Shown in pieces: positions 1 through 50,594 of a stretch of DNA of 50,594 nt. The notes beneath the pieces are model-generated. The model was not told where the DNA came from. It did not search any database and worked only from the letters and a program-made list of their open reading frames with translations. The stretch spans positions 1-50,594 of the forward strand of contig CALVYR010000004.1 of NCBI GenBank assembly GCA_944372325.1, given 5' to 3'. Origin of the DNA: an uncultured Clostridia bacterium (lineage in GTDB: Bacteria; Bacillota; Clostridia; Christensenellales; UBA1242). The position numbers and the translations under genes are program-made. Numbering within the stretch: position 1 is the stretch's first letter; each line of letters starts with the position of its first letter.

Positions 1-5
1 AAAGC

Positions 6-80
6 TGGCTGGGGTGGCAGGATTTGAACCTACGCATGCGAGAGTCAAAGTCTCGTGCCTTACCACTTGGCGACACCCCA
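6..80 (-). tRNA. tRNA-Gln (UUG)
   Basis: Reverse complement TGGGGTGTCGCCAAGTGGTAAGGC...CTTTGAC...GTTCAAATCC...CCA; cloverleaf, anticodon TTG, encoded CCA. Confidence 0.95.
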
Positions 81-136
81 CTATGTTAGAGGAGGGTGAT
101 TTTTAGCATTTGTAAACTTAAAGTTTACAAATGCAA

Positions 137-213
137 TGGTGGACCTTCTAGGACTCGAACCTAGGACCGACCGGTTATGAGCCGGTTGCTCTAACCAACT
201 GAGCTAAAGGTCC
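137..213 (-). tRNA. tRNA with CAU anticodon, probably Ile2 (lysidine-modified)
   Basis: Reverse complement GGACCTTTAGCTCAGTTGGTTAGAGC...CTCATAA...GGTCCACCA; acceptor stem resembles Firmicute tRNA-Ile2 rather than fMet. Confidence 0.85.
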
Positions 214-218
214 ACATT

Positions 219-294
219 TGGTCGGGGTGAAGAGACTCGAACTCCCGGCCCCATGGTCCCAAACCACGTGCGCTACCAACTGCGCTACACCCCG
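219..294 (-). tRNA. tRNA-Pro (UGG)
   Basis: Reverse complement CGGGGTGTAGCGCAG...TTTGGGA...CCCCGACCA. Confidence 0.95.
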
Positions 295-306
295 CCAGAC
301 TTTGCT

Positions 307-335
307 AGTTTATAACATTATACATTTTGTGTCAA
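307..335 (-). promoter_or_regulatory. sigma-A promoter of the tRNA operon
   Basis: TTGACA-N17-TAAACT on the minus strand just upstream of tRNA-Pro. Confidence 0.7.
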
Positions 336-488
336 GTGTTTGTTAAAAATTTTTTAATTTTTTGACAAAAAAATATAAGTGTCATTTCAAATTGAGCAGA
401 GTTAGTATAATATTTTTTTTAAATAAAGTCAATATTTTTTCACATTTAAAGAAATTTTAATTAAAATATAAATTTTTATAGAATTTAG

Positions 489-516
489 TTGACAAAAATG
501 CGGGGGGGGGTAGAAT
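489..516 (+). promoter_or_regulatory. sigma-A promoter with a G9 tract in the spacer (putatively phase-variable), copy 1
   Basis: TTGACA (489-494), 16-nt spacer AAAATGC+G9, TAGAAT (511-516); homologous copy at 50346-50371. Confidence 0.8.
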
Positions 517-578
517 TGGGTATCAAAAAAATTTAATAAGGTAATACCTTTTAAAATTGGCTTTCAGCGCTCGTTTCG
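489..578 (+). repeat. repeated promoter/leader cassette, copy 1
   Basis: Shares TTGACAAAAATGC(G)nTAGAAT, GGGTATCAAAAAAATTT, AAGGTAA and GCTCGTTTCG, in the same order, with 50346-50576. Confidence 0.85.
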
Positions 579-651
579 TCGTGTATAGCTAAACAAACAA
601 CAATTTCTTGCGGTCGAAATGACATTTAAAAAAACAAAAGGAGAATAAACA

Positions 652-2034
652 ATGAAAAGAACAAAATTAATTGCAAGTTTAATGATGTGTGTGTTTTGCC
701 TAAGCTTTTTAGTAGTAGGCGTATGGGCAACAGTGACTAGTGTAAACTTTAATTTAAACGGAAATTTACAATACTATCCAGAGGGTGTGTATGTAGAACT
801 CAGCGGTCAAGTGTATAGAGGAAGTAGTTCAGATAGCCTCACAGCCTTAACTTATGACCCAAGATTTACATTAGAACCAACAACAAACTATGATAATTCC
901 ACAGGTGAACCTAGTGGCAACTTTCCAATGGAAAGCTGGAATATACAAAATTTAACTTTTACCCCAGTGGATAGGTTTATTCAGGTGGAAGTAAATATTA
1001 AAAACCACTCTGAGTTTACAATAATGGCAACACCAAATGTGCTTTTAAATAGCCTAGATATAACCTCAAATACTTTTACTAATTTTACTTTATCTGACAA
1101 TAGAGAAGATATAGCATTTATATCTTCAGGAGCAACTAAAACATATAAATTATTAATTCAACTAAACGATAATGCTACTGAAACCACAAATAATAACCTT
1201 TCTGTAAGTTTTGAAATATATAGTTCAACAGATTATTTAACATGGGTAGAAGATGACCCAGATACAACAGATGTAGTAGATGGCTACTGGACACTAATAA
1301 TGGGTGAATATGAGGGAACTCCACTTGTTTGGCGTATGGTACTTAAAGAAGAAAATAACGATGTAAGAAGTGTAGTAGGCTACACTCAGGATACACCTTT
1401 AAGCGGAAGTTACTACTTTTTATTAGATACTTATATTGAAGATGTGTTTGAGTGTTCATATGAGAATAATTATATCAATTCTTCTACTAATACTACTACC
1501 AGAACAGATTTATATGCTAATATAGTAAGTGTTGCTGATTATTCTATAAGTAATATTAGAGGATATTTGACAGGTGTTGATGTTTATAGAGGATATACTT
1601 CTTTATCTTCAGAATATTCTGAAAGTTTACATTCAAGCCAAACAGAACCAGAAAATTTTGTAGAAAAATTTGGCTTAGAGAGTTCTATTGTTTATAAATT
1701 GATACAAGCAAGAACTCTTACGGATTTATATTCAAATATTGTCAATAGTACAACAAAAACATCTCTTGAATTTGATACTGATACAGGTATTGATCCAGAT
1801 ACAACTGCGGACAAACTTTGGCTTATTAGTTATTATGAAGCCTCAAAAATTACTACTACACAAAGCACAGGATCGGATAATGGGGCAAGAAGTTGGAGTT
1901 CAATATATTGGACAAGAACAGCAAACTCAACACCACATCCTTATTATATTATGACAAATGGATATATAGGACTTGGAAGTATTTATTTTAATTGGACCAA
2001 CTGCGCGCGCCCAGCTTTCAAAATTTCATTTTAA
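652..2034 (+). CDS. secreted/surface protein with a C-terminal DUF6273-like (C-type-lectin fold) domain
   Basis: AAGGAG RBS; N-terminal signal/TM; beta-rich N domain; motifs MGEY..PLVWRMV, YSISNIRGYL, DKLWLISYYE, YWTRT, CARPAF. Confidence 0.7.
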   Translation: MKRTKLIASLMMCVFCLSFLVVGVWATVTSVNFNLNGNLQYYPEGVYVELSGQVYRGSSSDSLTALTYDPRFTLEPTTNYDNSTGEPSGNFPMESWNIQNLTFTPVDRFIQVEVNIKNHSEFTIMATPNVLLNSLDITSNTFTNFTLSDNREDIAFISSGATKTYKLLIQLNDNATETTNNNLSVSFEIYSSTDYLTWVEDDPDTTDVVDGYWTLIMGEYEGTPLVWRMVLKEENNDVRSVVGYTQDTPLSGSYYFLLDTYIEDVFECSYENNYINSSTNTTTRTDLYANIVSVADYSISNIRGYLTGVDVYRGYTSLSSEYSESLHSSQTEPENFVEKFGLESSIVYKLIQARTLTDLYSNIVNSTTKTSLEFDTDTGIDPDTTADKLWLISYYEASKITTTQSTGSDNGARSWSSIYWTRTANSTPHPYYIMTNGYIGLGSIYFNWTNCARPAFKISF

Positions 2035-2078: not shown

Positions 2079-2172
2079 ATTTACTTATTCTAAATTAAGT
2101 CCTTTTTCGCCATTTTCTCCAATTTTTCTTAAGGCTCTTTATGCTATCATTTTTTCATCAAAGGAGGAAATT

Positions 2173-2481
2173 ATGTTGGTTAAAAATAGAGTCTACAACA
2201 ATACGCTATATGTGCTTTTAAGTGGAGAATTAGATGAACACTCTGCCTATAACACCAGAATCACTTTAGATGAGCTTTTTGAACATGACAATTTTAAACA
2301 GATTATCATAGATCTTTCTGAGCTAGATTTTATGGATAGCACAGGCATTGGTGTTTTAATAGGAAGATACAAAAAGATGAAAGATAGAAAGATACCTATT
2401 TTTATTTGTAACCCTTCCGCTCATGCAGAAAAGATTTTTAAAATGACAGGGCTATATGAAATTATGCCTAAAATAGTTTAA
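2173..2481 (+). CDS. spoIIAA: anti-sigma F factor antagonist
   Basis: STAS domain, GELDEH and FMDSTGIG; first gene of the spoIIA operon. Confidence 0.93.
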   Translation: MLVKNRVYNNTLYVLLSGELDEHSAYNTRITLDELFEHDNFKQIIIDLSELDFMDSTGIGVLIGRYKKMKDRKIPIFICNPSAHAEKIFKMTGLYEIMPKIV

Positions 2482-2491
2482 GGAGAAAATT

Positions 2492-2944
2492 ATGATAAAA
2501 CCAATAAATGAAATGAATATTTCTTTTAAAGCTCTTTCAGTAAACGAGGGTTTTGCAAGAGCTTGCGTGGCTGCCTTTTGCGCCCAAGTAAACCCTAGTT
2601 TAGATGAAATTACAGACATAAAAACAGCAGTAAGCGAGGCTGTTACAAACTGCGTTGTTCATGCTTATCCTAAAAAGGTTGGCGATGTAAACATAAAGGT
2701 AGAACTATACGAAAATTCTGTTATCATTTTTGTTTCTGATAACGGCATTGGAATAGAGGACTTTGAAAGAGCGCGTGAACCATTTTTTACCACCAAGCCA
2801 AATGAAGAGCGTAGCGGAATGGGCTTTACCGTTATGGAAAGCTTTATGGATAAACTAGAACTATTAAAAAACGAAGGAAGAGGGGTTACAGTAAAAATGG
2901 AAAAGTTTTTTTCCATAAAGAAGAATATTGCAGTGGGGGAATAG
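2492..2944 (+). CDS. spoIIAB: anti-sigma F factor
   Basis: NEGFAR, AVSEAVTN..HAY, ERSGMGFTVMESFMD. Confidence 0.96.
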   Translation: MIKPINEMNISFKALSVNEGFARACVAAFCAQVNPSLDEITDIKTAVSEAVTNCVVHAYPKKVGDVNIKVELYENSVIIFVSDNGIGIEDFERAREPFFTTKPNEERSGMGFTVMESFMDKLELLKNEGRGVTVKMEKFFSIKKNIAVGE

Positions 2945-3670
2945 ATGCTCTCTTCAACAGATACCTTGGCGCTCATAAAGCGCGCTCAGCAGGGAGATGA
3001 AGAGGCAAAGCAGATTTTAATAGAAGAAAATTCACCCCTTGTTAAAAGTGTAATTAAAAGATTTAAAGGGAAAGGAATTGAATATGACGACCTCTATCAA
3101 CTTGGCTGTGTGGGTTTTTTAAAAGCCATAAAAAATTTTAATACAGATTTTAATGTAAAGTTTTCCACCTATGTAGTTCCCATGGTGATAGGTGAGATAA
3201 AGCGCTTCATGCGTGACGACGGAGAAATAAAAGTATCTAGGGCTATAAAGTCCTTAAATTTAAAAATTTCTAAATTTATAGAAAATTTTTTAAAAGAACA
3301 TATGCGAAAGCCTACAACTAAGGAAATTGCAAAGGAATTTAACATAGATGAAAGCGAAGTTATCTTTACAATGGATTCAGCAAAAATGCCGATATCTATG
3401 TTCGCCACCTATGATGACGATTCAAATAAAGGACAATATTTAATCGACCGATTTATGCAGACAGGTGATAACGAAGAGGTTCTAGATAGCATTTCCTTAA
3501 AAGAGGCGCTCTCTAGCCTAGATGAAAGAGATAAAAAGATAGTTTTACTGCGTTTTTTTAGAGATAAAACACAGAGTGAAATTGCAAATGTGTTAAATAT
3601 ATCACAAGTGCAAGTATCCAGACTTGAATGTAAAATAATAGAGAAGATGAGAGAAAAATTAAAGGTTTAA
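2945..3670 (+). CDS. sigF: sporulation sigma factor F
   Basis: DDLYQLG, FSTYVVPMVIGEIKRF, SQVQVSRLE; follows spoIIAB. Confidence 0.92.
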   Translation: MLSSTDTLALIKRAQQGDEEAKQILIEENSPLVKSVIKRFKGKGIEYDDLYQLGCVGFLKAIKNFNTDFNVKFSTYVVPMVIGEIKRFMRDDGEIKVSRAIKSLNLKISKFIENFLKEHMRKPTTKEIAKEFNIDESEVIFTMDSAKMPISMFATYDDDSNKGQYLIDRFMQTGDNEEVLDSISLKEALSSLDERDKKIVLLRFFRDKTQSEIANVLNISQVQVSRLECKIIEKMREKLKV

Positions 3671-15227: not shown

Positions 15228-16355
15228 ATGAAAACTTATTTTATTACAACATATGGTTGTCAACTTAATGTACATGAATCTGAAAAACTCGCTGGGGTAT
15301 TACAAAAGCGAGGTTTTTTGCCTGCAGATAAACTAGAGGACGCGGATATAATCGTGTTTAACACCTGTGCTATTAGAGAGGGGGCAGAGGACAGGGTTTT
15401 TGGCAATGTTGGCGCTCTAAAGAAATTAAAAAAGGAACATAAAGAAAAGATTATAGCAGTTTGTGGTTGCATGACACAACAAAAGGCAAAAGCCGAGAAG
15501 TTATATCAAGTTTTCCCGTTTATAGATATAATTTTTGGCACAAGTAACTTACATAAGTTTGAAGAATTTTTAGATAAGAAAACAAAAAGGCTTCTTGCCT
15601 ATGATGAGGACTTTAATCTTGAGGGCGAAAATATGCCTTTTTATAGAACAAGCGGTGAGAACGCTTGGGTAAATATTATGCAGGGTTGCAATAATTTTTG
15701 CACATACTGCATTGTGCCCTATGTTCGTGGTAGAGAACGAAGTAGACCTCATGAGGATATTTTAAAGGAGGTTAAGGAAGCTGTAAACTCTGGCTATAAA
15801 CTTATCACTTTACTTGGCCAAAATGTAAATAGTTATGGTAAAGACTGCGGTGAGATAAGCTTTGCAGAACTTCTAACAAAGGTAGCAAGCATAGATGGAG
15901 ATTTCAAAATAGCTTTCATGACTTCTCATCCTAAAGATTTGACTAGTGAAGTAATAGATGTAGTTGCAAATAACAAAAAGCTTTTAAAAGAAATTCATCT
16001 GCCTGTACAAAGTGGTAGTAACAGCGTGCTTGAAAGAATGAACAGAAAATACACTGTAGAAAAGTATCTTTCTATTATAGAGGAAATAAAAACTAAAATT
16101 CCAGATGTTAGAATTACTACAGATATTATAGTTGGTTTTCCTGGAGAAACTGAAGAGGACTTTGAAAAGACCTGCTCGCTCATAAGAAAGGTGAAATACG
16201 ATGGAATATTTGCTTTTATGTTTTCAGTGCGTGAGGGAACTGTTGCTGAAAAGATGAATGATCAAGTGCCTTTTGAAATAAAAAACAGAAGAGTAAATAA
16301 AATTTTAGAACTTGAAAAAGAAATAAAAAAGGATAAACTTAATGGAAATAATTGA
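15228..16355 (+). CDS. miaB: tRNA-i6A37 methylthiotransferase, apparently lacking the TRAM domain
   Basis: TYGCQLN, NTCAIRE, CNNFCTYC; 375 aa. Confidence 0.88.
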   Translation: MKTYFITTYGCQLNVHESEKLAGVLQKRGFLPADKLEDADIIVFNTCAIREGAEDRVFGNVGALKKLKKEHKEKIIAVCGCMTQQKAKAEKLYQVFPFIDIIFGTSNLHKFEEFLDKKTKRLLAYDEDFNLEGENMPFYRTSGENAWVNIMQGCNNFCTYCIVPYVRGRERSRPHEDILKEVKEAVNSGYKLITLLGQNVNSYGKDCGEISFAELLTKVASIDGDFKIAFMTSHPKDLTSEVIDVVANNKKLLKEIHLPVQSGSNSVLERMNRKYTVEKYLSIIEEIKTKIPDVRITTDIIVGFPGETEEDFEKTCSLIRKVKYDGIFAFMFSVREGTVAEKMNDQVPFEIKNRRVNKILELEKEIKKDKLNGNN

Positions 16356-18951
16356 TAGAGAAAAGCTTTCTCCAATGATGAAGCATTATCTAAATATAAA
16401 GGATAAATACAAAGATACCATTCTATTTTATAGGCTTGGTGATTTTTATGAGTTTTTCTTTGATGATGCTATAGAGATGTCTAGCGTGCTAGACCTATCT
16501 CTTACAGGTAAGGATTGTGGAAACAATATGCGTGCTCCTATGTGTGGAATACCTTATCATGCTGCTGAAGGCTATATTGCAAAACTAATGAAGCTTGGCT
16601 ATTCTATAGGAATCTGCGAGCAACTTTCCGAGCCTAAAGCGGGAAAGATAGTAGAGCGCGATGTTATAAGAATTGTAACTCCTGGCACTGTAACAGAAGA
16701 TAGCATGTTAGATGAAAAATCTAATAACTACATAGCTTGTGTGACCTTTAACAATAATGAAGGCTTTGGTGTAGCAATAGCCGATGTTACTACGGGAGAA
16801 TTTAATATAGTTGAGTGTCAAAATTTAAACGATTTAGATAATATTATAACTCGAACTACACCTGCTGAAATTATTTCAGATGAGCTTTCCTTAAAATATT
16901 CAAATGAGCTCAGTTCTGTAAGACTGGGTACTGTGCCAAGATTTAAAAAATATTTCGATTGGGCTTTTGTTGAACCTAGAATAAGTGAAAATTTGAGGAG
17001 ACAATTTTCTGAAAATTGTTATTCCATTTATGAGTTAAAAGGCAAGGATGCGGTATGTTCTGCAGCGGGAGCACTACTTGAATATTTAAATGAAACGGAA
17101 AAGGTTGCTCTTCCTCACATAACTAAAATGAGATGGCTAAATGTATCGGAATATCTAATTTTAGATGCAAACACAAGGCGAAACCTTGAAATTGTAGAAA
17201 CTATGCGAGATAGAAGGAGAAAAGGTTCACTTCTTGCGCTTTTAGATAACACTTCTACAAGCATGGGTGCGCGTAAACTAAAAAATTGGGTGGAACAGCC
17301 TTTAAAGGATGCTAAAAAAATAAACTACAGGTTAGATACTATTGAAGAGTTAAATGGTAAAGTAATTTTGCGAGATGCTTTAAGGCTTAAATTAAAAGAA
17401 CTTAGTGATATTGAAAGAATAACTGGCAAAATTGCTATGGATAGAATCATGCCTAGAGATATGGGAAATTTGAGAAAATCTTTCCAAGCCCTTCCTGAAA
17501 TAAAGACGCTTCTAACAACATCAGGCTTTAAAAATTTAAGTGGCCTTGGCGAAGCTATTCCAGATTTTAGCCAGATTTGTGACATCTTAGAAAGAGCTAT
17601 AGTGGACAGCAATATTCCTTTAAATGTTAAGGATGGCGGTGTATTTAAGCCGAGCTATACCTCTGAACTTGAAAGCCTTAAAAACTTATTTGGCAAACAA
17701 GAAAAATATATCCAAGCCTTAGAATCTAAGGAAAGAGAACTTACTGGCATAAAGAATTTGAGGGTTATAAACAACAGAGTTTTTGGATATCTAATTGAAG
17801 TAACAAAATCAATGCTTGATAAAGTTCCTATGCGCTATACAAGAAGGCAAACCACAGCAAATTCAGAGCGTTTTACTACTGTCGAGTTAAAAGAACTAGA
17901 GGATAAAATTTTAAATGCGGGCTCGGAAATAGAAAAACTAGAGCTTGCCCTCTATGCTCAAATAGTAGAATTGCTGAAAGAGAACATAGAAAATTTACTA
18001 AAGCTTGGAAACATAATTTCAGAAGTAGATTGTTTGCTTTCACTATCAACATTAGCAGTAAGAAATAATTATTGCAAGCCCACTATAAACAATAAGATAA
18101 AGTGTATTAGAATAGAAGAAGGTAGGCATCCTGTGGTTGAAGATCTATTAAAACACGATCAGTTTATTAGCAATGACACCTTTTTAAACGGAACCGCAGA
18201 TAAAACTATGATAATTACTGGGCCAAATATGGCGGGTAAAAGCACTTATATGAGGCAAGTAGCAGTTATTACTCTTATGGCACATATAGGTAGCTTTGTG
18301 CCAGCTAAAAGTGCAGAAATTTGTATTACAGATAGAATTTTTACTAGAGTTGGTGCTAGTGACGACTTAGCCTTTGGGCAAAGCACTTTTATGGTGGAGA
18401 TGTCTGAAACTGCAAACATTCTTGCAAATGCCACAGAAAACAGCTTGGTTATTTTAGATGAAATTGGGCGTGGTACTTCAACTTTTGATGGTCTTAGCAT
18501 TGCTTGGGCAGTTGTGGAATATCTTTCAAAAAATATGAGATGCAAAACTCTTTTTGCAACTCACTATCACGAGCTTACAGAGCTTGAAGGCAATCTAGAT
18601 GGCGTAAAGAACTATAAGATAAATGTGAAAGAAATAAATGGAAGCATTGTCTTTTTAAGAAAAGTTGTTAGAGGTGGAGCGAATAAGAGTTTTGGTATAG
18701 AGGTTGCCTCGCTAGCAGGGCTTCCTAAAGAGGTAATAAAGCGTGCTAAAGAAATAAGTAGAGCTTTAGAGCAAGTTGATGTAAACAAAAATTTAGTTAA
18801 AGAAGTGGAGAGTGTAAACCCTGAAGCTGAAAAACGAAATAAAAATGTTACGGAAATAATGGGGATTCTTAACGATTTGAATATAGAGAAGATGACACCA
18901 CTCAGTGCATTTGAAATTTTAAATGATTTAATAACAAAGGCAAAAGGATAA
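16342..18951 (+). CDS. mutS: DNA mismatch repair protein MutS
   Basis: GDFYE, TGPNMAGKST, STFMVEM, DEIGRGT. Confidence 0.98.
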   Translation: MEIIDREKLSPMMKHYLNIKDKYKDTILFYRLGDFYEFFFDDAIEMSSVLDLSLTGKDCGNNMRAPMCGIPYHAAEGYIAKLMKLGYSIGICEQLSEPKAGKIVERDVIRIVTPGTVTEDSMLDEKSNNYIACVTFNNNEGFGVAIADVTTGEFNIVECQNLNDLDNIITRTTPAEIISDELSLKYSNELSSVRLGTVPRFKKYFDWAFVEPRISENLRRQFSENCYSIYELKGKDAVCSAAGALLEYLNETEKVALPHITKMRWLNVSEYLILDANTRRNLEIVETMRDRRRKGSLLALLDNTSTSMGARKLKNWVEQPLKDAKKINYRLDTIEELNGKVILRDALRLKLKELSDIERITGKIAMDRIMPRDMGNLRKSFQALPEIKTLLTTSGFKNLSGLGEAIPDFSQICDILERAIVDSNIPLNVKDGGVFKPSYTSELESLKNLFGKQEKYIQALESKERELTGIKNLRVINNRVFGYLIEVTKSMLDKVPMRYTRRQTTANSERFTTVELKELEDKILNAGSEIEKLELALYAQIVELLKENIENLLKLGNIISEVDCLLSLSTLAVRNNYCKPTINNKIKCIRIEEGRHPVVEDLLKHDQFISNDTFLNGTADKTMIITGPNMAGKSTYMRQVAVITLMAHIGSFVPAKSAEICITDRIFTRVGASDDLAFGQSTFMVEMSETANILANATENSLVILDEIGRGTSTFDGLSIAWAVVEYLSKNMRCKTLFATHYHELTELEGNLDGVKNYKINVKEINGSIVFLRKVVRGGANKSFGIEVASLAGLPKEVIKRAKEISRALEQVDVNKNLVKEVESVNPEAEKRNKNVTEIMGILNDLNIEKMTPLSAFEILNDLITKAKG

Positions 18952-18955
18952 GTTT

Positions 18956-20812
18956 ATGAGTAAAATTAATATTCTAGATAGATTTGTCAGCAACAGAATT
19001 TCTGCGGGCGAGGTTGTAGAAAAACCATTGTCTGTAGTAAAGGAACTTGTTGAAAATAGTATAGATGCGGGTGCTGATAAGATTACAATAGAAATTGAAG
19101 AGGGTGGTATAAAAGCTATATCCATTCAAGATAACGGCTCTGGCATTGAAAAAGAGGATATAAAGCTTGCCTTTATGCCTCATGCAACAAGTAAAATAAA
19201 AACTGTAGAAGATTTAGACCAAATTGGAACTTTAGGTTTTAGAGGAGAGGCGTTAGCCAGCATTGCATCTGTTGCTCAAGTTGAGATGATGTCTAAAACG
19301 CCTAATTCAGAACTTGGGGCTACTATTAAAATAGATGGTGGAGAGTTTGGAGAAGTGGGTGAAACCGCTATGAATAATGGCACTAAAATAGTGGTTAAAA
19401 ACTTATTTTTCAACACTCCTGCTAGGCGTAAATTTTTAAGAAAACCTAAAACTGAAGAGGGCGATATAACAGATCTTATTGAAAAGATAATTTTAGCAAA
19501 TCCTACACTTCAGATAAGATATATAATTGATGGAAAAATAAATTATGATACTACAGGTGGTGGTTTATACGCAAACATATATACTATATATGGTAAGGAA
19601 ACCATAGATAACATTATAGAAATAAACTTTGAACGAGAAGGCTATAGGCTTACTGGCTATATAGGAAAGCCAGAAATATCAAAGGCTAATAGAACTTATC
19701 AAACGCTTATTGTAAATGGAAGAGTTGTTAAAAATGCCTTTATTTCTAATGCTATCCAAGAGGTTTATGAAAACTTTTTAATGAAGAACAAATTTCCATT
19801 TTTTGTGTTAAACTTAAGTTTGCCACTCGATAGTGTTGATGTAAATGTTCACCCAAGTAAAATGGAAGTTAAATTTGAAAATTTAGGTTTTATAAGAACG
19901 CTTTTTACAAACGCAGTCTACTCGGCGCTTATGAACGCAAATTATACAAGAAATGTGGAAGATAGTGCTAATGAAAAACCTCAAGCTCAATCTAATGACT
20001 TTGTTTCTAATTTAACTCCTCTTTCAAGCGATGATGGTGTAAGCTATTTAGCTTCAAAAGAAAATATGTTTGGCGCGCAAGAGATAAAAGAGGTTAATTT
20101 AAACTTTGATGAGTCTAGACTAACTGAGTTTACTAATCTTGAAGCAAATTCAAATGAAAGTAGGTTTACAGATTTTGTTTTAAACACTAAACGAAAAAGT
20201 CCGTTTGAAGTTTCTGAATATCAAGAAACAATTGAAAATACTATTCCAAGGGCTAAAATTATAGGAGTTATTTTTAAAACTTATATAATTGTTGAAAAAG
20301 AAAATGACCTTTACATGATAGATCAACATGCTGCTCATGAAAGGGCGCTTTACGATAAGTTCTCTTCAAGTGTGGAAAGAAGTGATGTGTTAAAACAGGG
20401 TTTAATTACTCCGTTTACTTTAAAATTAAACTCGCTTGAATACGATTTCTTTAAAAGGAATTTTTCTGTTTTAAATAGTGTAGGTTTTGATGCGATAGAT
20501 AAAGGGAACAATCAAATAGATATAACGGCAATTCCATATATCTTGCCGTTTGAAAAGGTAGAAGAATATTTTAATTATTTTTTAAGCAATCTTCAAGATT
20601 ATTCAACTAAGGCATCCGATTACTTTAAAGCAGGGTTAATGCAACATGCTTGCAAAATGGCAGTTAAAAGCGGGCAAATTCTTTCAATTAATGAAATTGA
20701 AGCGCTTATTGATGAAATGGAAAAACATGTATTGTTATGTCCACATGGCAGACCTGTTGTAATAAAAATAACAAAATCTCAGATAGAAAAATGGTTTAAA
20801 AGAATTGTATGA
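18956..20812 (+). CDS. mutL: DNA mismatch repair endonuclease MutL
   Basis: GFRGEAL, DQHAAHER, CPHGRP. Confidence 0.98.
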   Translation: MSKINILDRFVSNRISAGEVVEKPLSVVKELVENSIDAGADKITIEIEEGGIKAISIQDNGSGIEKEDIKLAFMPHATSKIKTVEDLDQIGTLGFRGEALASIASVAQVEMMSKTPNSELGATIKIDGGEFGEVGETAMNNGTKIVVKNLFFNTPARRKFLRKPKTEEGDITDLIEKIILANPTLQIRYIIDGKINYDTTGGGLYANIYTIYGKETIDNIIEINFEREGYRLTGYIGKPEISKANRTYQTLIVNGRVVKNAFISNAIQEVYENFLMKNKFPFFVLNLSLPLDSVDVNVHPSKMEVKFENLGFIRTLFTNAVYSALMNANYTRNVEDSANEKPQAQSNDFVSNLTPLSSDDGVSYLASKENMFGAQEIKEVNLNFDESRLTEFTNLEANSNESRFTDFVLNTKRKSPFEVSEYQETIENTIPRAKIIGVIFKTYIIVEKENDLYMIDQHAAHERALYDKFSSSVERSDVLKQGLITPFTLKLNSLEYDFFKRNFSVLNSVGFDAIDKGNNQIDITAIPYILPFEKVEEYFNYFLSNLQDYSTKASDYFKAGLMQHACKMAVKSGQILSINEIEALIDEMEKHVLLCPHGRPVVIKITKSQIEKWFKRIV

Positions 20813-21717
20813 TCAAAGATGTAATTATCATAACTGGTCCAACAGCAGTTGGTAAAAGTGAAATTGCTGTGGAGATTGCAAAAACTGTAGGCGGAGAGAT
20901 AATCTCTGCCGATTCTATGCAAATTTATAGAGGCTTGAATGTTGGTTCTGGAAAGATTACGCCTGAAGAAATGCAGGGAGTTAAACATTATCTTTTAGAT
21001 ATTAAAAGTATAAATCAAACCTATAGCGTGGCTGAGTTTTGTGAAGATTGTAAAAAAACAATTAAACAGATTATGCTTAAGGGTAAAGTGCCAATAATAG
21101 TTGGTGGAACTGGGCTTTATATCAAGGCTTTAACTAATGACTATAACTATTTTGGTGTTAAGCGTGATGATGAACTAAGAGAAGAACTAGAAAAATTTGC
21201 GGAAAAAAATGGGCTAAATGACTTATATGAAATGCTTAAAAAATTATCTCCAGTTTTGGCAGAAAAAATTTCTCCAACAGATAAAAAGCGCATAATAAGG
21301 GCTCTTGAAATTTGTAAGAGTAAAAAGCGTGAAATTAAAGTAAACAGCGAGCAATTCACTTATAAGGTTTTTGCATTAAACACTGAAAGAAGTGTTTTAT
21401 ATGATAGAATTAGTCAAAGAGTAAATAAGATGATTCAAATTGGACTTGTTGAAGAAGTTAAAAAACTTGTAGGCGAGGGCTTAACTCGCGATAACCAGTG
21501 TGCTAAAGGTATAGGTTATGCTGAAATTTTAGATTATTTAGACGGCACTTATTCTTTAAGCGAGGCTATTGAAAAGATAAAACAACATTCCAGAAATTAC
21601 GCAAAGCGCCAATTGACATTGCTTAGAGGAATTGCTCCAATATGGATAGAGGCGTTTCCGCGTGAAAATGCAATAAAAGAGATTTTAAAAGAGGTAGAAT
21701 ATGGACTTGATAACTGA
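20809..21717 (+). CDS. miaA: tRNA dimethylallyltransferase
   Basis: GPTAVGKS, ADSMQIY, VGGTGLY, YAKRQ. Confidence 0.96.
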   Translation: MIKDVIIITGPTAVGKSEIAVEIAKTVGGEIISADSMQIYRGLNVGSGKITPEEMQGVKHYLLDIKSINQTYSVAEFCEDCKKTIKQIMLKGKVPIIVGGTGLYIKALTNDYNYFGVKRDDELREELEKFAEKNGLNDLYEMLKKLSPVLAEKISPTDKKRIIRALEICKSKKREIKVNSEQFTYKVFALNTERSVLYDRISQRVNKMIQIGLVEEVKKLVGEGLTRDNQCAKGIGYAEILDYLDGTYSLSEAIEKIKQHSRNYAKRQLTLLRGIAPIWIEAFPRENAIKEILKEVEYGLDN

Positions 21718-49154: not shown

Positions 49155-50303
49155 ATGATAAATAGAAAGATAGATACAGAATTAAAAAAGATTATGACAT
49201 TAGAAAACATAAATAGAGATGTTAAGTGTTTAATCTATGTTCTTGGTTTTAATTCGAATTTAAAAAGAATAGAAGAGAGTGGGGTTAAAATAGAACAGAA
49301 ATTTCCATTTATAAATGCAGTAAGTGCAAGAGTTCCAGTGGGTTTAATAAATAAACTTTCTATGCAAAATTATATAGAATATATTTCTAGTCAAAGCAAA
49401 GTTGAAGCCTTAATGCACATAGCTAGAAAGGTGTTGAAAGTTAGTGAAAGCTCATATTCTGGAAATGAAATAGGTGTTGCATATATAGATACAGGCATAG
49501 CTCCACATCCAGATTTCAAACTTATAAAAAATAGAATTATTAAATTTGTTGACCTTATAAATGAAAAAGAATATCCATATGACGATAATGGACATGGCAC
49601 ATTTGTGGCAGGTGTAGGTTCGGGTAATGGTGCATTATCTGGTGGTAAGTATAAGGGTATAGCTCCAAATTCTAACATCATTTCAATAAAAGCCTTAGAT
49701 AAACATGGGGAGGCAAATGCCACAAAAATTTTGGAAGCAATGCAATGGGTATATGATAATCATTTAGATTATAACATAAAAGTTGTTTGCATGAGCTTTG
49801 GTAGTGAACCTTTAGGCTATAACGATCCAATCATGAAAGGGGCGGAAGCGCTTTGGAAAAAAGGAATTGTTATAGTGTCGGCGGCAGGAAATAGTGGGCC
49901 TGAATATCAAACAATTAAAAGCCCAGGTATAAGCCCTAGAATTATCACCGTGGGAGGAATGAACGATAATAGGTTTGATGATGAGTATAAAGAAGAGTTT
50001 TTTGAAATAGCTAATTTTTCTTCTCGAGGGCCTGCCTTCAATAAGTTTAAACCTGATATAGTAGCGCCATCTGTTGATATTAATTCTTGTTCAAATAAAG
50101 ATGGCTATACAAAACTTAGTGGCACAAGCGTTGCTACGCCCATGATAGCTGGGCTATGTGCCTTAGCCTTTGAAAAAAACAAGTATTTACGGCCAGACCA
50201 AATAAAGCGGGCACTGCTTGCTTGTTGTAATGGAATAACTTACAACAGAAATCTTGAGGGTTATGGGCTACCTAATCTAGAAAAATTTTTAAAATACATT
50301 TAA
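49155..50303 (+). CDS. aprX: AprX-like S8 subtilase
   Basis: IDTG, DDNGHGT, AAGN, GTSVATP; no signal peptide. Confidence 0.8.
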   Translation: MINRKIDTELKKIMTLENINRDVKCLIYVLGFNSNLKRIEESGVKIEQKFPFINAVSARVPVGLINKLSMQNYIEYISSQSKVEALMHIARKVLKVSESSYSGNEIGVAYIDTGIAPHPDFKLIKNRIIKFVDLINEKEYPYDDNGHGTFVAGVGSGNGALSGGKYKGIAPNSNIISIKALDKHGEANATKILEAMQWVYDNHLDYNIKVVCMSFGSEPLGYNDPIMKGAEALWKKGIVIVSAAGNSGPEYQTIKSPGISPRIITVGGMNDNRFDDEYKEEFFEIANFSSRGPAFNKFKPDIVAPSVDINSCSNKDGYTKLSGTSVATPMIAGLCALAFEKNKYLRPDQIKRALLACCNGITYNRNLEGYGLPNLEKFLKYI

Positions 50304-50326
50304 ACAGAGTGTTTGCTCTGTTTTTT
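50302..50326 (+). terminator. rho-independent terminator
   Basis: AAACAGAGT-GTTT-GCTCTGTTTTTT. Confidence 0.7.
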
Positions 50327-50345
50327 AATTTTTTTCTAATTTTGC

Positions 50346-50371
50346 TTGACAAAAATGCGGGGGGGTAGAAT
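50346..50371 (+). promoter_or_regulatory. sigma-A promoter with a G7 tract in the spacer (putatively phase-variable), copy 2
   Basis: TTGACA (50346-50351), 14-nt spacer AAAATGC+G7, TAGAAT (50366-50371). Confidence 0.75.
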
Positions 50372-50511
50372 AAGCTCGGCAAAATAAATTTAGCTAATTC
50401 TAGCTAAAATTAAAGTGCTAACGCACTTAGGTTCGCTAACGCTCACATTTTGCCGAGCTTTTTAGGCATCGTCGTGCTCACCCTTGCAAGCAAGTTCGCA
50501 CTCCTCGTAAT
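50372..50511. mobile_element. 140-bp multi-hairpin insertion (REP/MITE-like) inside cassette copy 2
   Basis: Absent from copy 1; 14-bp perfect IR at 50372-50385/50447-50460; nested hairpins; AAT at both junctions. Confidence 0.5.
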
Positions 50512-50594
50512 GGGGTATCAAAAAAATTTTAAGGTAAGGATAATATTTTAAGTAGCCTTTTCTAGAGCTCGTTTCGGAATTTTAAAAGAAAGCG

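Follow-up and report, generated by a model that had tools for sequence, protein, structure and literature searches.

A dispersed family of poly-G-spacer promoters as a candidate phase-variation system in the gut genus Candidatus Caccopulliclostridium

Slippage in a promoter spacer is a textbook mechanism. In Neisseria meningitidis, a run of G or C in the spacer between the -35 and -10 boxes grades the expression of porA and of opc. Unlike these single genes, the candidate system described in this article is a dispersed family whose members share one common cassette. Since the mechanism itself would be a textbook one, the value of the system lies in the lineage, the scale, and an unexplained palindromic architecture: the density of loci is unusual, the lineage is unexpected, and the architecture is both palindromic and mosaic.

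Among mycoplasmas, Mycoplasma hyorhinis has a poly-A tract in the promoter of each vlp paralog, in which insertions and deletions switch transcription (PMC10502178). The two systems share a multigene family, a reduced genome, and a homopolymer in each gene's own promoter, as well as the conservation of promoter and signal-peptide regions among paralogs (PMC10502178). The system described here differs in that the tract is poly-G, located at dispersed loci of a Clostridia genome of 34% GC, whereas the vlp tracts are described as poly-A and clustered; the vlp products are lipoproteins, whereas those considered here combine a beta-sandwich with LRR or DUF6273 domains, and their switching is putative. 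Similarly, in Treponema pallidum, PMC7864442 reports poly-G tracts of about 7-12 residues in the promoters of the putative surface-protein genes tprE/G/J, tp0126, and tprL; that of tp0126 occupies the spacer from the -35 to the -10 box, with 17 nt as the optimum, and most tprL molecules carry 9 G. Both organisms have poly-G promoters, surface-protein candidates, and a genome of about 1 Mb, whereas a spirochete pathogen, mapped transcription starts, fragment-length assays, and reporters belong to T. pallidum only (PMC7864442). In contrast to the loci described there, those reported here are far more numerous (about 25) and share a single cassette.

A BspA-like LRR family in a reduced genome also occurs in Candidatus Mycoplasma girerdii, for which at least 28 BspA-like LRR surface proteins and repeat-length variants from metagenomic reads are listed (PMC5476646). 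There, gene-associated dinucleotide repeats are described as shifting the reading frame (PMC5476646), whereas here the repeat is a homopolymer in the promoter spacer whose lengths come from assemblies. Finally, the invertons of gut bacteria, through which surface genes phase-vary (PMC11892184), resemble the present loci in having inverted repeats near promoters, and differ from them in that no alternative orientation and no adjoining recombinase were found here.

The host genome belongs to the genus Candidatus Caccopulliclostridium of the chicken gut, in the family UBA1242 of the Christensenellales, and PMC8035907 likewise places the genus in the GTDB family UBA1242. PMC12306168 describes UBA1242 as uncultured gut Clostridia with genomes of about 1 Mb or below, a reduced-genome family that possesses sporulation genes and for which a partner-dependent life, living off other cells, has been proposed. 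In that paper, no word begins with 'surface', 'repeat', or 'adhes', and 'phase' occurs only in the name of a metabolic pathway (PMC12306168). A literature search, whose coverage excluded subscription journals and supplements, returned no account of the motif and none of promoters of this kind in the lineage.

The poly-G cassette in the window and across the genome

The window, that is, the whole stretch of DNA analyzed, is the entire contig C4 of 50,594 bp from a genome of 1,041,953 bp in 46 contigs with 33.8% GC. Its features of interest are as follows.

482 to 531, plus strand: conserved cassette, copy 1 (BLASTN copy number along window positions 1-1200)
489 to 494, plus strand: -35 hexamer TTGACA of copy 1 (sequence, consensus scan)
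495 to 501, plus strand: fixed spacer part AAAATGC of copy 1 (sequence)
502 to 510, plus strand: G9 tract, the variable spacer part of copy 1 (sequence, listing of G/C runs)
511 to 516, plus strand: -10 hexamer TAGAAT of copy 1 (sequence, consensus scan)
517 to 651, plus strand: leader of copy 1, with shared blocks to about 578 and a GGAG ribosome-binding site at 640-643
652 to 2034, plus strand: family gene of 460 aa, downstream of copy 1
50302 to 50323, plus strand: terminator-like hairpin closing an S8 peptidase gene, just 5' of copy 2
50337 to 50371, plus strand: cassette copy 2 (BLASTN copy number, sequence)
50346 to 50351, 50352 to 50358, 50359 to 50365, and 50366 to 50371, plus strand: -35 box, AAAATGC, G7, and -10 box of copy 2
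50372 to 50508, plus strand: insert of about 137 nt, separating the -10 box of copy 2 from the shared leader
50509 to 50594, plus strand: shared leader blocks of copy 2, ended by the end of the contig

An earlier note on this DNA had described two poly-G promoters, and reading both sites bears it out: copy 1 (489-516) consists of TTGACA, AAAATGC, G9, and TAGAAT with a spacer of 16 bp, and copy 2 (50346-50371) has the identical layout with G7 and a spacer of 14 bp. The same note took their tracts for the longest G runs of the window, and they are indeed the only G/C runs of at least 7 in it. Two matches to the 18-nt core lie in the window, whereas none of 100 shuffles contained it. The further statement of the note that both copies continue with the same leader blocks holds as far as the blocks themselves are concerned, not as regards their contiguity in copy 2, where they start only at about 50509, after the insert. 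This insert carries an inverted repeat with arms at 50372-50385 and 50447-50460, and the same module also follows other cassette copies. In locus L051 of another assembly, the upstream flank of copy 2 and its G7 are followed by a family gene.

The sequence TTGACA-16-TAGAAT of copy 1 agrees with the promoter consensus at 11 of 12 positions and is the joint-best promoter-like site between 250 and 750, while copy 2 with its 14-bp spacer was not scored as a promoter by the consensus scan, which accepts 16-18 nt. The leader of copy 1 folds no better than its shuffles (z = +0.85). No Rfam family reached the gathering threshold in the leaders of the window, and none was found at 16 paralog loci, where the sole match was to a miRNA model on both strands, below threshold. 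Since the window is a complete contig, both copies lie less than 500 nt from contig ends; assemblies frequently stop at the cassette, a dispersed repeat, and many of its copies are found near contig ends. On the minus strand at 6-294 lies a cluster of tRNA-Gln, tRNA-Met, and tRNA-Pro, into which a promoter-like site, TTGACA-17-TAAACT at 307-335, is directed; the poly-G cassette begins only about 190 nt from this cluster and points in the opposite direction.

The proposal that the two copies belong to a larger dispersed family was substantiated by searching the genome, which contains 23 instances of TTGACAAAAATGC with a G run after it (G7 once, G8 5 times, G9 11 times, G10 twice, and 4 interrupted or degenerate tracts), and BLASTN finds the core around the tract repeated 25-30 times (20-30 times for the core along 482-531). 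The promoter cassette of about 50 bp, with about 25 copies, is organized roughly as AATTTCGC, TTGACA, AAAATGC, Gn, TA[G/A]AAT, and a short shared leader. A genome-wide listing of G/C runs of at least 6 comprises 2 six-base runs and 31 runs of 7-10 bases; of these 31, 26 stand directly 5' of TAGAAT or TAAAAT, 4 more lie in cassettes with a change of 1-5 nt, and 1 is unrelated. With 30 of the 31 long runs in the cassette, long G runs are thus restricted to this promoter context in the genome. In 24 copies the promoter is complete, a TTGAC[AT] box preceding the -10 box by 14-18 bp, whereas 5 cassette copies have Gn, the -10 box, and the leader but no -35 box. A homopolymer between the -35 and -10 boxes of a promoter is therefore what these copies display, as judged by consensus. 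About 60% of the copies have G9, and by a rough tally, conservation of the G positions does not clearly exceed that of the remaining core.

Several irregular copies were also observed. In contig C15 (L064), the entire promoter is duplicated in tandem at 21013 and 21490, 477 bp apart, before one family gene, and the duplicate includes about 125 nt of identical upstream sequence. Decayed cassettes without a -10 box occur at C26:7274 (L068), C12:7343 (L074), and C9:2717 (L065); the one in C26 sits 5' of a truncated family ORF of 112 aa, and another assembly (L048) has this decayed form as well.

The genes downstream could be evaluated for 25 of the 31 runs, the other 6 being within 500 nt of a contig end. 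A family gene in the same orientation follows within 1.5 kb in 19 of the 25; the remaining runs precede an ORF with a lipoprotein-like N-terminus as judged by eye (1), an unrelated ORF past a terminator-like hairpin (2), or no ORF of at least 100 aa (3). As defined by iterative BLASTP, the paralogous family comprises 30 ORFs with a common N-terminus, in which a hydrophobic N-terminal helix (signal peptide or transmembrane) is followed by a domain of about 170-200 residues and by C-terminal halves that differ. Among 11 scanned members, 4 match BspA-type LRR_5 (PF13306) above the Pfam cut-off at 92-414 bits and 1 matches DUF6273 (PF19789) above the cut-off at 41.7 bits, while an NCBIfam scan of 5 members returned nothing meaningful. 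The 460-aa protein of the window matched no Pfam or NCBIfam family, and thus neither LRR_5 nor DUF6273; among its homologues, many are labelled PF19789 in precomputed annotation. Its AF2 model (pLDDT 80.8) contains an N-terminal hydrophobic helix, a beta-sandwich at about residues 30-190, and a second domain; Foldseek against the PDB gave no match at E <= 0.001, and the top weak matches were pilins. It is a reasonable inference that the family consists of secreted or surface proteins. The earlier suggestion of paralogous surface-protein loci accordingly stands for the paralogy and the signal peptide, at 19 of 25 evaluable G runs, and this outcome does not extend to the words 'surface' and 'antigenic'. 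A poly-G promoter is absent from the 1.2 kb upstream of five full-length members of this genome.

Tract length and promoter spacing

Differences in tract length were assessed in assembled contigs. The 105 promoter copies, taken from this genome, from metagenome contigs, and from MAGs of the genus, include 12 clusters whose flanks are at least 90% alike on both sides; 11 of these clusters belong to the genus, and some of the compared assemblies may share samples. The number of G differs in 4 of the 11 genus clusters and is the same in 7, so that the tract length is not invariant across assemblies, in line with what the earlier note had expected of a switch. One of the four combines G10 and G9 with flanks that are 100% identical, another consists of G9, G9, G13, and G9 with flanks that are 99-100% identical (100% among three copies including G13), and the other two contain G9 and G12, and G8 and G9, respectively. 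Over all 12 clusters, one of which is outside the genus, 7 of 19 pairs are unequal in G length, compared with unequal lengths in 5 of 61 comparisons of the A/T runs of 6-8 in the same flanks. Differences of one base between low-coverage assemblies could be consensus errors, while this is unlikely for the differences of 3 and 4 G. A pair of records from an unrelated organism, L016 and L103 (one of them titled Anaerolineae), has 100% identical flanks with G10 and G14 after TTGACAAAAATGC.

For the tract of the window at 502-510, assembled contigs of runs X1 (covering 293-511) and X5 (covering 265-511) both contain G9 with no gaps and no length variant, and both end at 511, a position at which either branching at the repeat or branching between G9 and G10 can be expected to end a contig in a 31-mer graph. 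A 26-nt pattern specific to this locus had no match among metagenome contigs, and the contigs compared above were collected with the general pattern. The RNA run X16 covers only 660-752, which is common to the paralogs, and 2168-3000, and has no bearing on expression or the start site. The mismatch repair genes mutS (869 aa, with all five domains of the protein) and mutL (618 aa) are intact at 16342-20812 of the window; slippage is thus not boosted through the loss of mismatch repair, and the organism is no mutator of this kind.

The spacers of the 24 complete promoters measure 14 (1), 15 (4), 16 (14), 17 (2), and 18 (3) bp, and those of 61 further promoters in related assemblies measure 14 (2), 15 (12), 16 (39), 17 (2), 18 (4), 19 (1), and 20 (1) bp. 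The organism's own preference can be gauged from sites of the form TTGACA-N-TA[TAG]AAT without a G run in the same genome, of which 36 of 61 have 17 bp, 6 have 16 bp, and 8 have 18 bp, while the poly-G promoters of the genome have 16 bp in 14 of 23 cases and 17 bp in 2 of 23 (Fisher p = 3.5e-7 for this offset, a value overstated because the paralogs are not independent). The sharp peak at 17 bp among the other consensus promoters fits the guess that G10 provides the best spacing, and the modal G9, one base below this optimum, agrees with G10 as the best state and G7 as off. Three of the four interrupted tracts (C5, C7, and C25) keep the 16-bp spacer, the copy in C5, counted in addition to the 24, doing so with G8 plus A, which may indicate that 16 bp is a working state rather than an 'off' state.

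Taken together, a promoter-spacer slippage system in which each locus switches separately is, in our judgment, a probable reading of these loci. A genus-specific cassette, evolving in concert across its copies, would drive a paralogous family of secreted or surface proteins, with an unbroken G tract forming the 3' half of the spacer between the -35 and -10 boxes. Replication slippage would shift the spacer in steps of 1 bp and thereby shift promoter strength; given a housekeeping-type preference for 17 bp, G10 would be optimal, G9 weak, and G7-G8, like G11 or longer, poor or off, and switching locus by locus would yield cells with different protein sets. The scheme presumes an active promoter with its start site, a strength that depends on the number of G, a switch that is reversible at some rate, and exposure of the products at the surface. 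If about 25 promoters do switch independently, there would be about one locus for a secreted LRR-type protein per 40 kb, which would amount to a heavy investment in variable surface contacts with the host, partner cells, or phages and would constitute a parallel to mycoplasmas and Treponema in a spore-forming Firmicute. The length of the G run at uniquely flanked loci would then serve as a simple metagenome marker for expression states.

Palindromic architecture and competing explanations

Perfect palindromes with arms of 12-23 nt are present at 23 of 80 promoters of the family type. All 23 take in the -10 box wholly or partly, 16 begin at the 3' end of the tract, within its final two or three G's, and in 21 the arms are 0-6 nt apart; although the arms vary between loci, the two at a given locus are always mirror images. 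At 13 of the loci, the right arm runs on into a conserved block that reads TTGTAA-N16-TA[G/A]AAT on the other strand, a second promoter-like site facing the first. Across these 13 cases, this block occurs in a single arrangement, never alone or flipped, and no leftward gene was found for it. Five pairs of loci, one of which is copy 2 of the window and L051 (G7 in both), have a common upstream flank and unrelated sequence from just after the -10 box. This combination points to exchange at the core, although the apparent swaps may be assembly chimeras formed at the 50-bp repeat. The genome has 2 tyrosine recombinase matches and 1 serine recombinase match, none of which adjoins a cassette, and no transposase or invertase was found next to the cassettes.

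The leaders are mosaic and combine several modules, among them short GC-rich palindromic units. One dispersed module of about 170 nt lies within the leaders of family genes in both orientations (for example, L051:1048-1220) and is present on contigs C11, C12, C13, C14, C21, C28, C36, C41, C42, and C44. Compared with MITE or Correia-like elements, inverted-repeat modules are inserted after the -10 box, and neither consistent ends nor target-site duplications were defined. An inverton was considered and rejected on the grounds that only one arrangement was found, no recombinase adjoins the sites, and the arms of 21 of the 23 palindromes, 0-6 nt apart, are too close for inversion.

The palindromes and the swapping of modules at the core are features that a simple slippage model leaves unexplained. 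At the palindromic loci, the G tract might tune the competition of overlapping convergent promoters, whose common palindrome takes in both -10 boxes and of which the opposing one has a fixed spacer, while recombination at the core reassorts promoters, leaders, and genes, a combination that we consider improbable at present; if true, slippage, interference, and shuffling would act together to vary the surface of a possibly partner-dependent gut Firmicute with a reduced genome.

The slippage reading has to be weighed against a static promoter, in which the G run is no more than a component of a duplicated promoter that gene conversion holds alike, where it may serve as a regulator site or as a spacer fixing a modest 16-bp promoter, and in which the length differences are rare neutral changes or assembly errors without any switch. 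The pronounced mode at G9 and 16 bp is equally what a fixed, deliberately weak promoter predicts, and the interrupted tracts that hold 16 bp (3 of 4), the 7 of 11 genus clusters without a length difference, and the presence of the mismatch repair genes all lean the same way; moreover, the entire 50-bp core is conserved rather than the G's alone, and concerted evolution could suffice to maintain the tract. However, differences of 3 and 4 G between copies whose flanks are 100% identical are hard to attribute to errors, the G tracts are more variable than the A/T runs of the same flanks, and tracts of G9-10 that stay unbroken at about 25 loci of a genome with 34% GC, and in 6 species, form the classic signature of contingency loci, so that we regard a static promoter as unlikely, though worth keeping in view. 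Sequencing or assembly artefacts, for example the poly-G of two-colour chemistry, are highly improbable as a source of the tracts: many copies do lie close to contig ends, and the metagenome contig L040 ends 4 nt past a run of G14, but the tract is internal with flanks matched on both sides and recurs in MAGs and assemblies of several submitters and in run contigs of two studies.

It is also conceivable that the G run, the -10 box, and the first bases of the leader mark the end of a copied or exchanged module, MITE-like or spread by gene conversion, whose promoter look is secondary. Such a junction would account for the 5 copies that lack a -35 box, the 5 pairs that break right after the -10 box, the perfect palindromes including the -10 box at 23 of 80 promoters, the tandem promoter duplication in C15, and the dispersed leader modules in both orientations. 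It would leave without explanation a consensus -35 box at 14-18 bp in 24 of 31 runs and the position of 19 of the 25 evaluable runs before family genes in the right orientation; it also has to contend with the lack of an adjoining transposase or invertase in a genome with a total of only 2 tyrosine and 1 serine recombinase matches, with the absence of any flipped arrangement among the loci found, and with the chance that some of the 'swaps' are assembly chimeras. We accordingly hold a mobile-module junction to be quite improbable as the main explanation, and promoter-spacer slippage at separately switching loci remains the reading we favor.

Distribution within the genus and beyond

Of 6 other species in the genus, 5 have the cassette pattern with at most one mismatch, whereas all 34 genomes that represent other genera within the family and order lack it. 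Scanning species-representative genomes returned 44 stretches, of which 34 lie in five MAGs of the genus, including Ca. Caccopulliclostridium gallistercoris, and 10 are single matches in other taxa; by contig position, the five MAGs match the genus genomes of the preceding count. In the MAGs of the genus, a family gene is the first ORF at 13 of 17 loci with sufficient downstream sequence.

The family gene of the window stands directly 5' of an operon at 2173-3670 resembling spoIIAA (STAS), spoIIAB (HATPase_c_2), and sigF (sigma-70 regions 2-4), the presence of which in a genome of about 1 Mb agrees with the picture of the family drawn in PMC12306168. The position upstream of spoIIAA is occupied by a family gene in 2 of 4 readable species (in G006 the stretch reaches the contig end), and the orthologous stretches of the other species contain no G run of at least 6. 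Both L123 (G002) and L124 (G004) thus have a family gene upstream of spoIIAA without such a run, and no cassette-like promoter was found upstream of the family gene at this position in G002. The cassette appears to be gained and lost locus by locus.

Beyond the genus, TTGACAAAAATGC followed by G6-G14 and a TATAAT-like box occurs singly in unrelated MAGs, including those of Acutalibacteraceae, Christensenellaceae, Lachnospiraceae, and others, which suggests that promoters with a poly-G spacer may be more widespread in gut Clostridia. These copies (L104, L108, L119, L121, L014, L018, L028, and L049) mostly lie 5' of ORFs with N-termini resembling signal peptides or lipoprotein signals.
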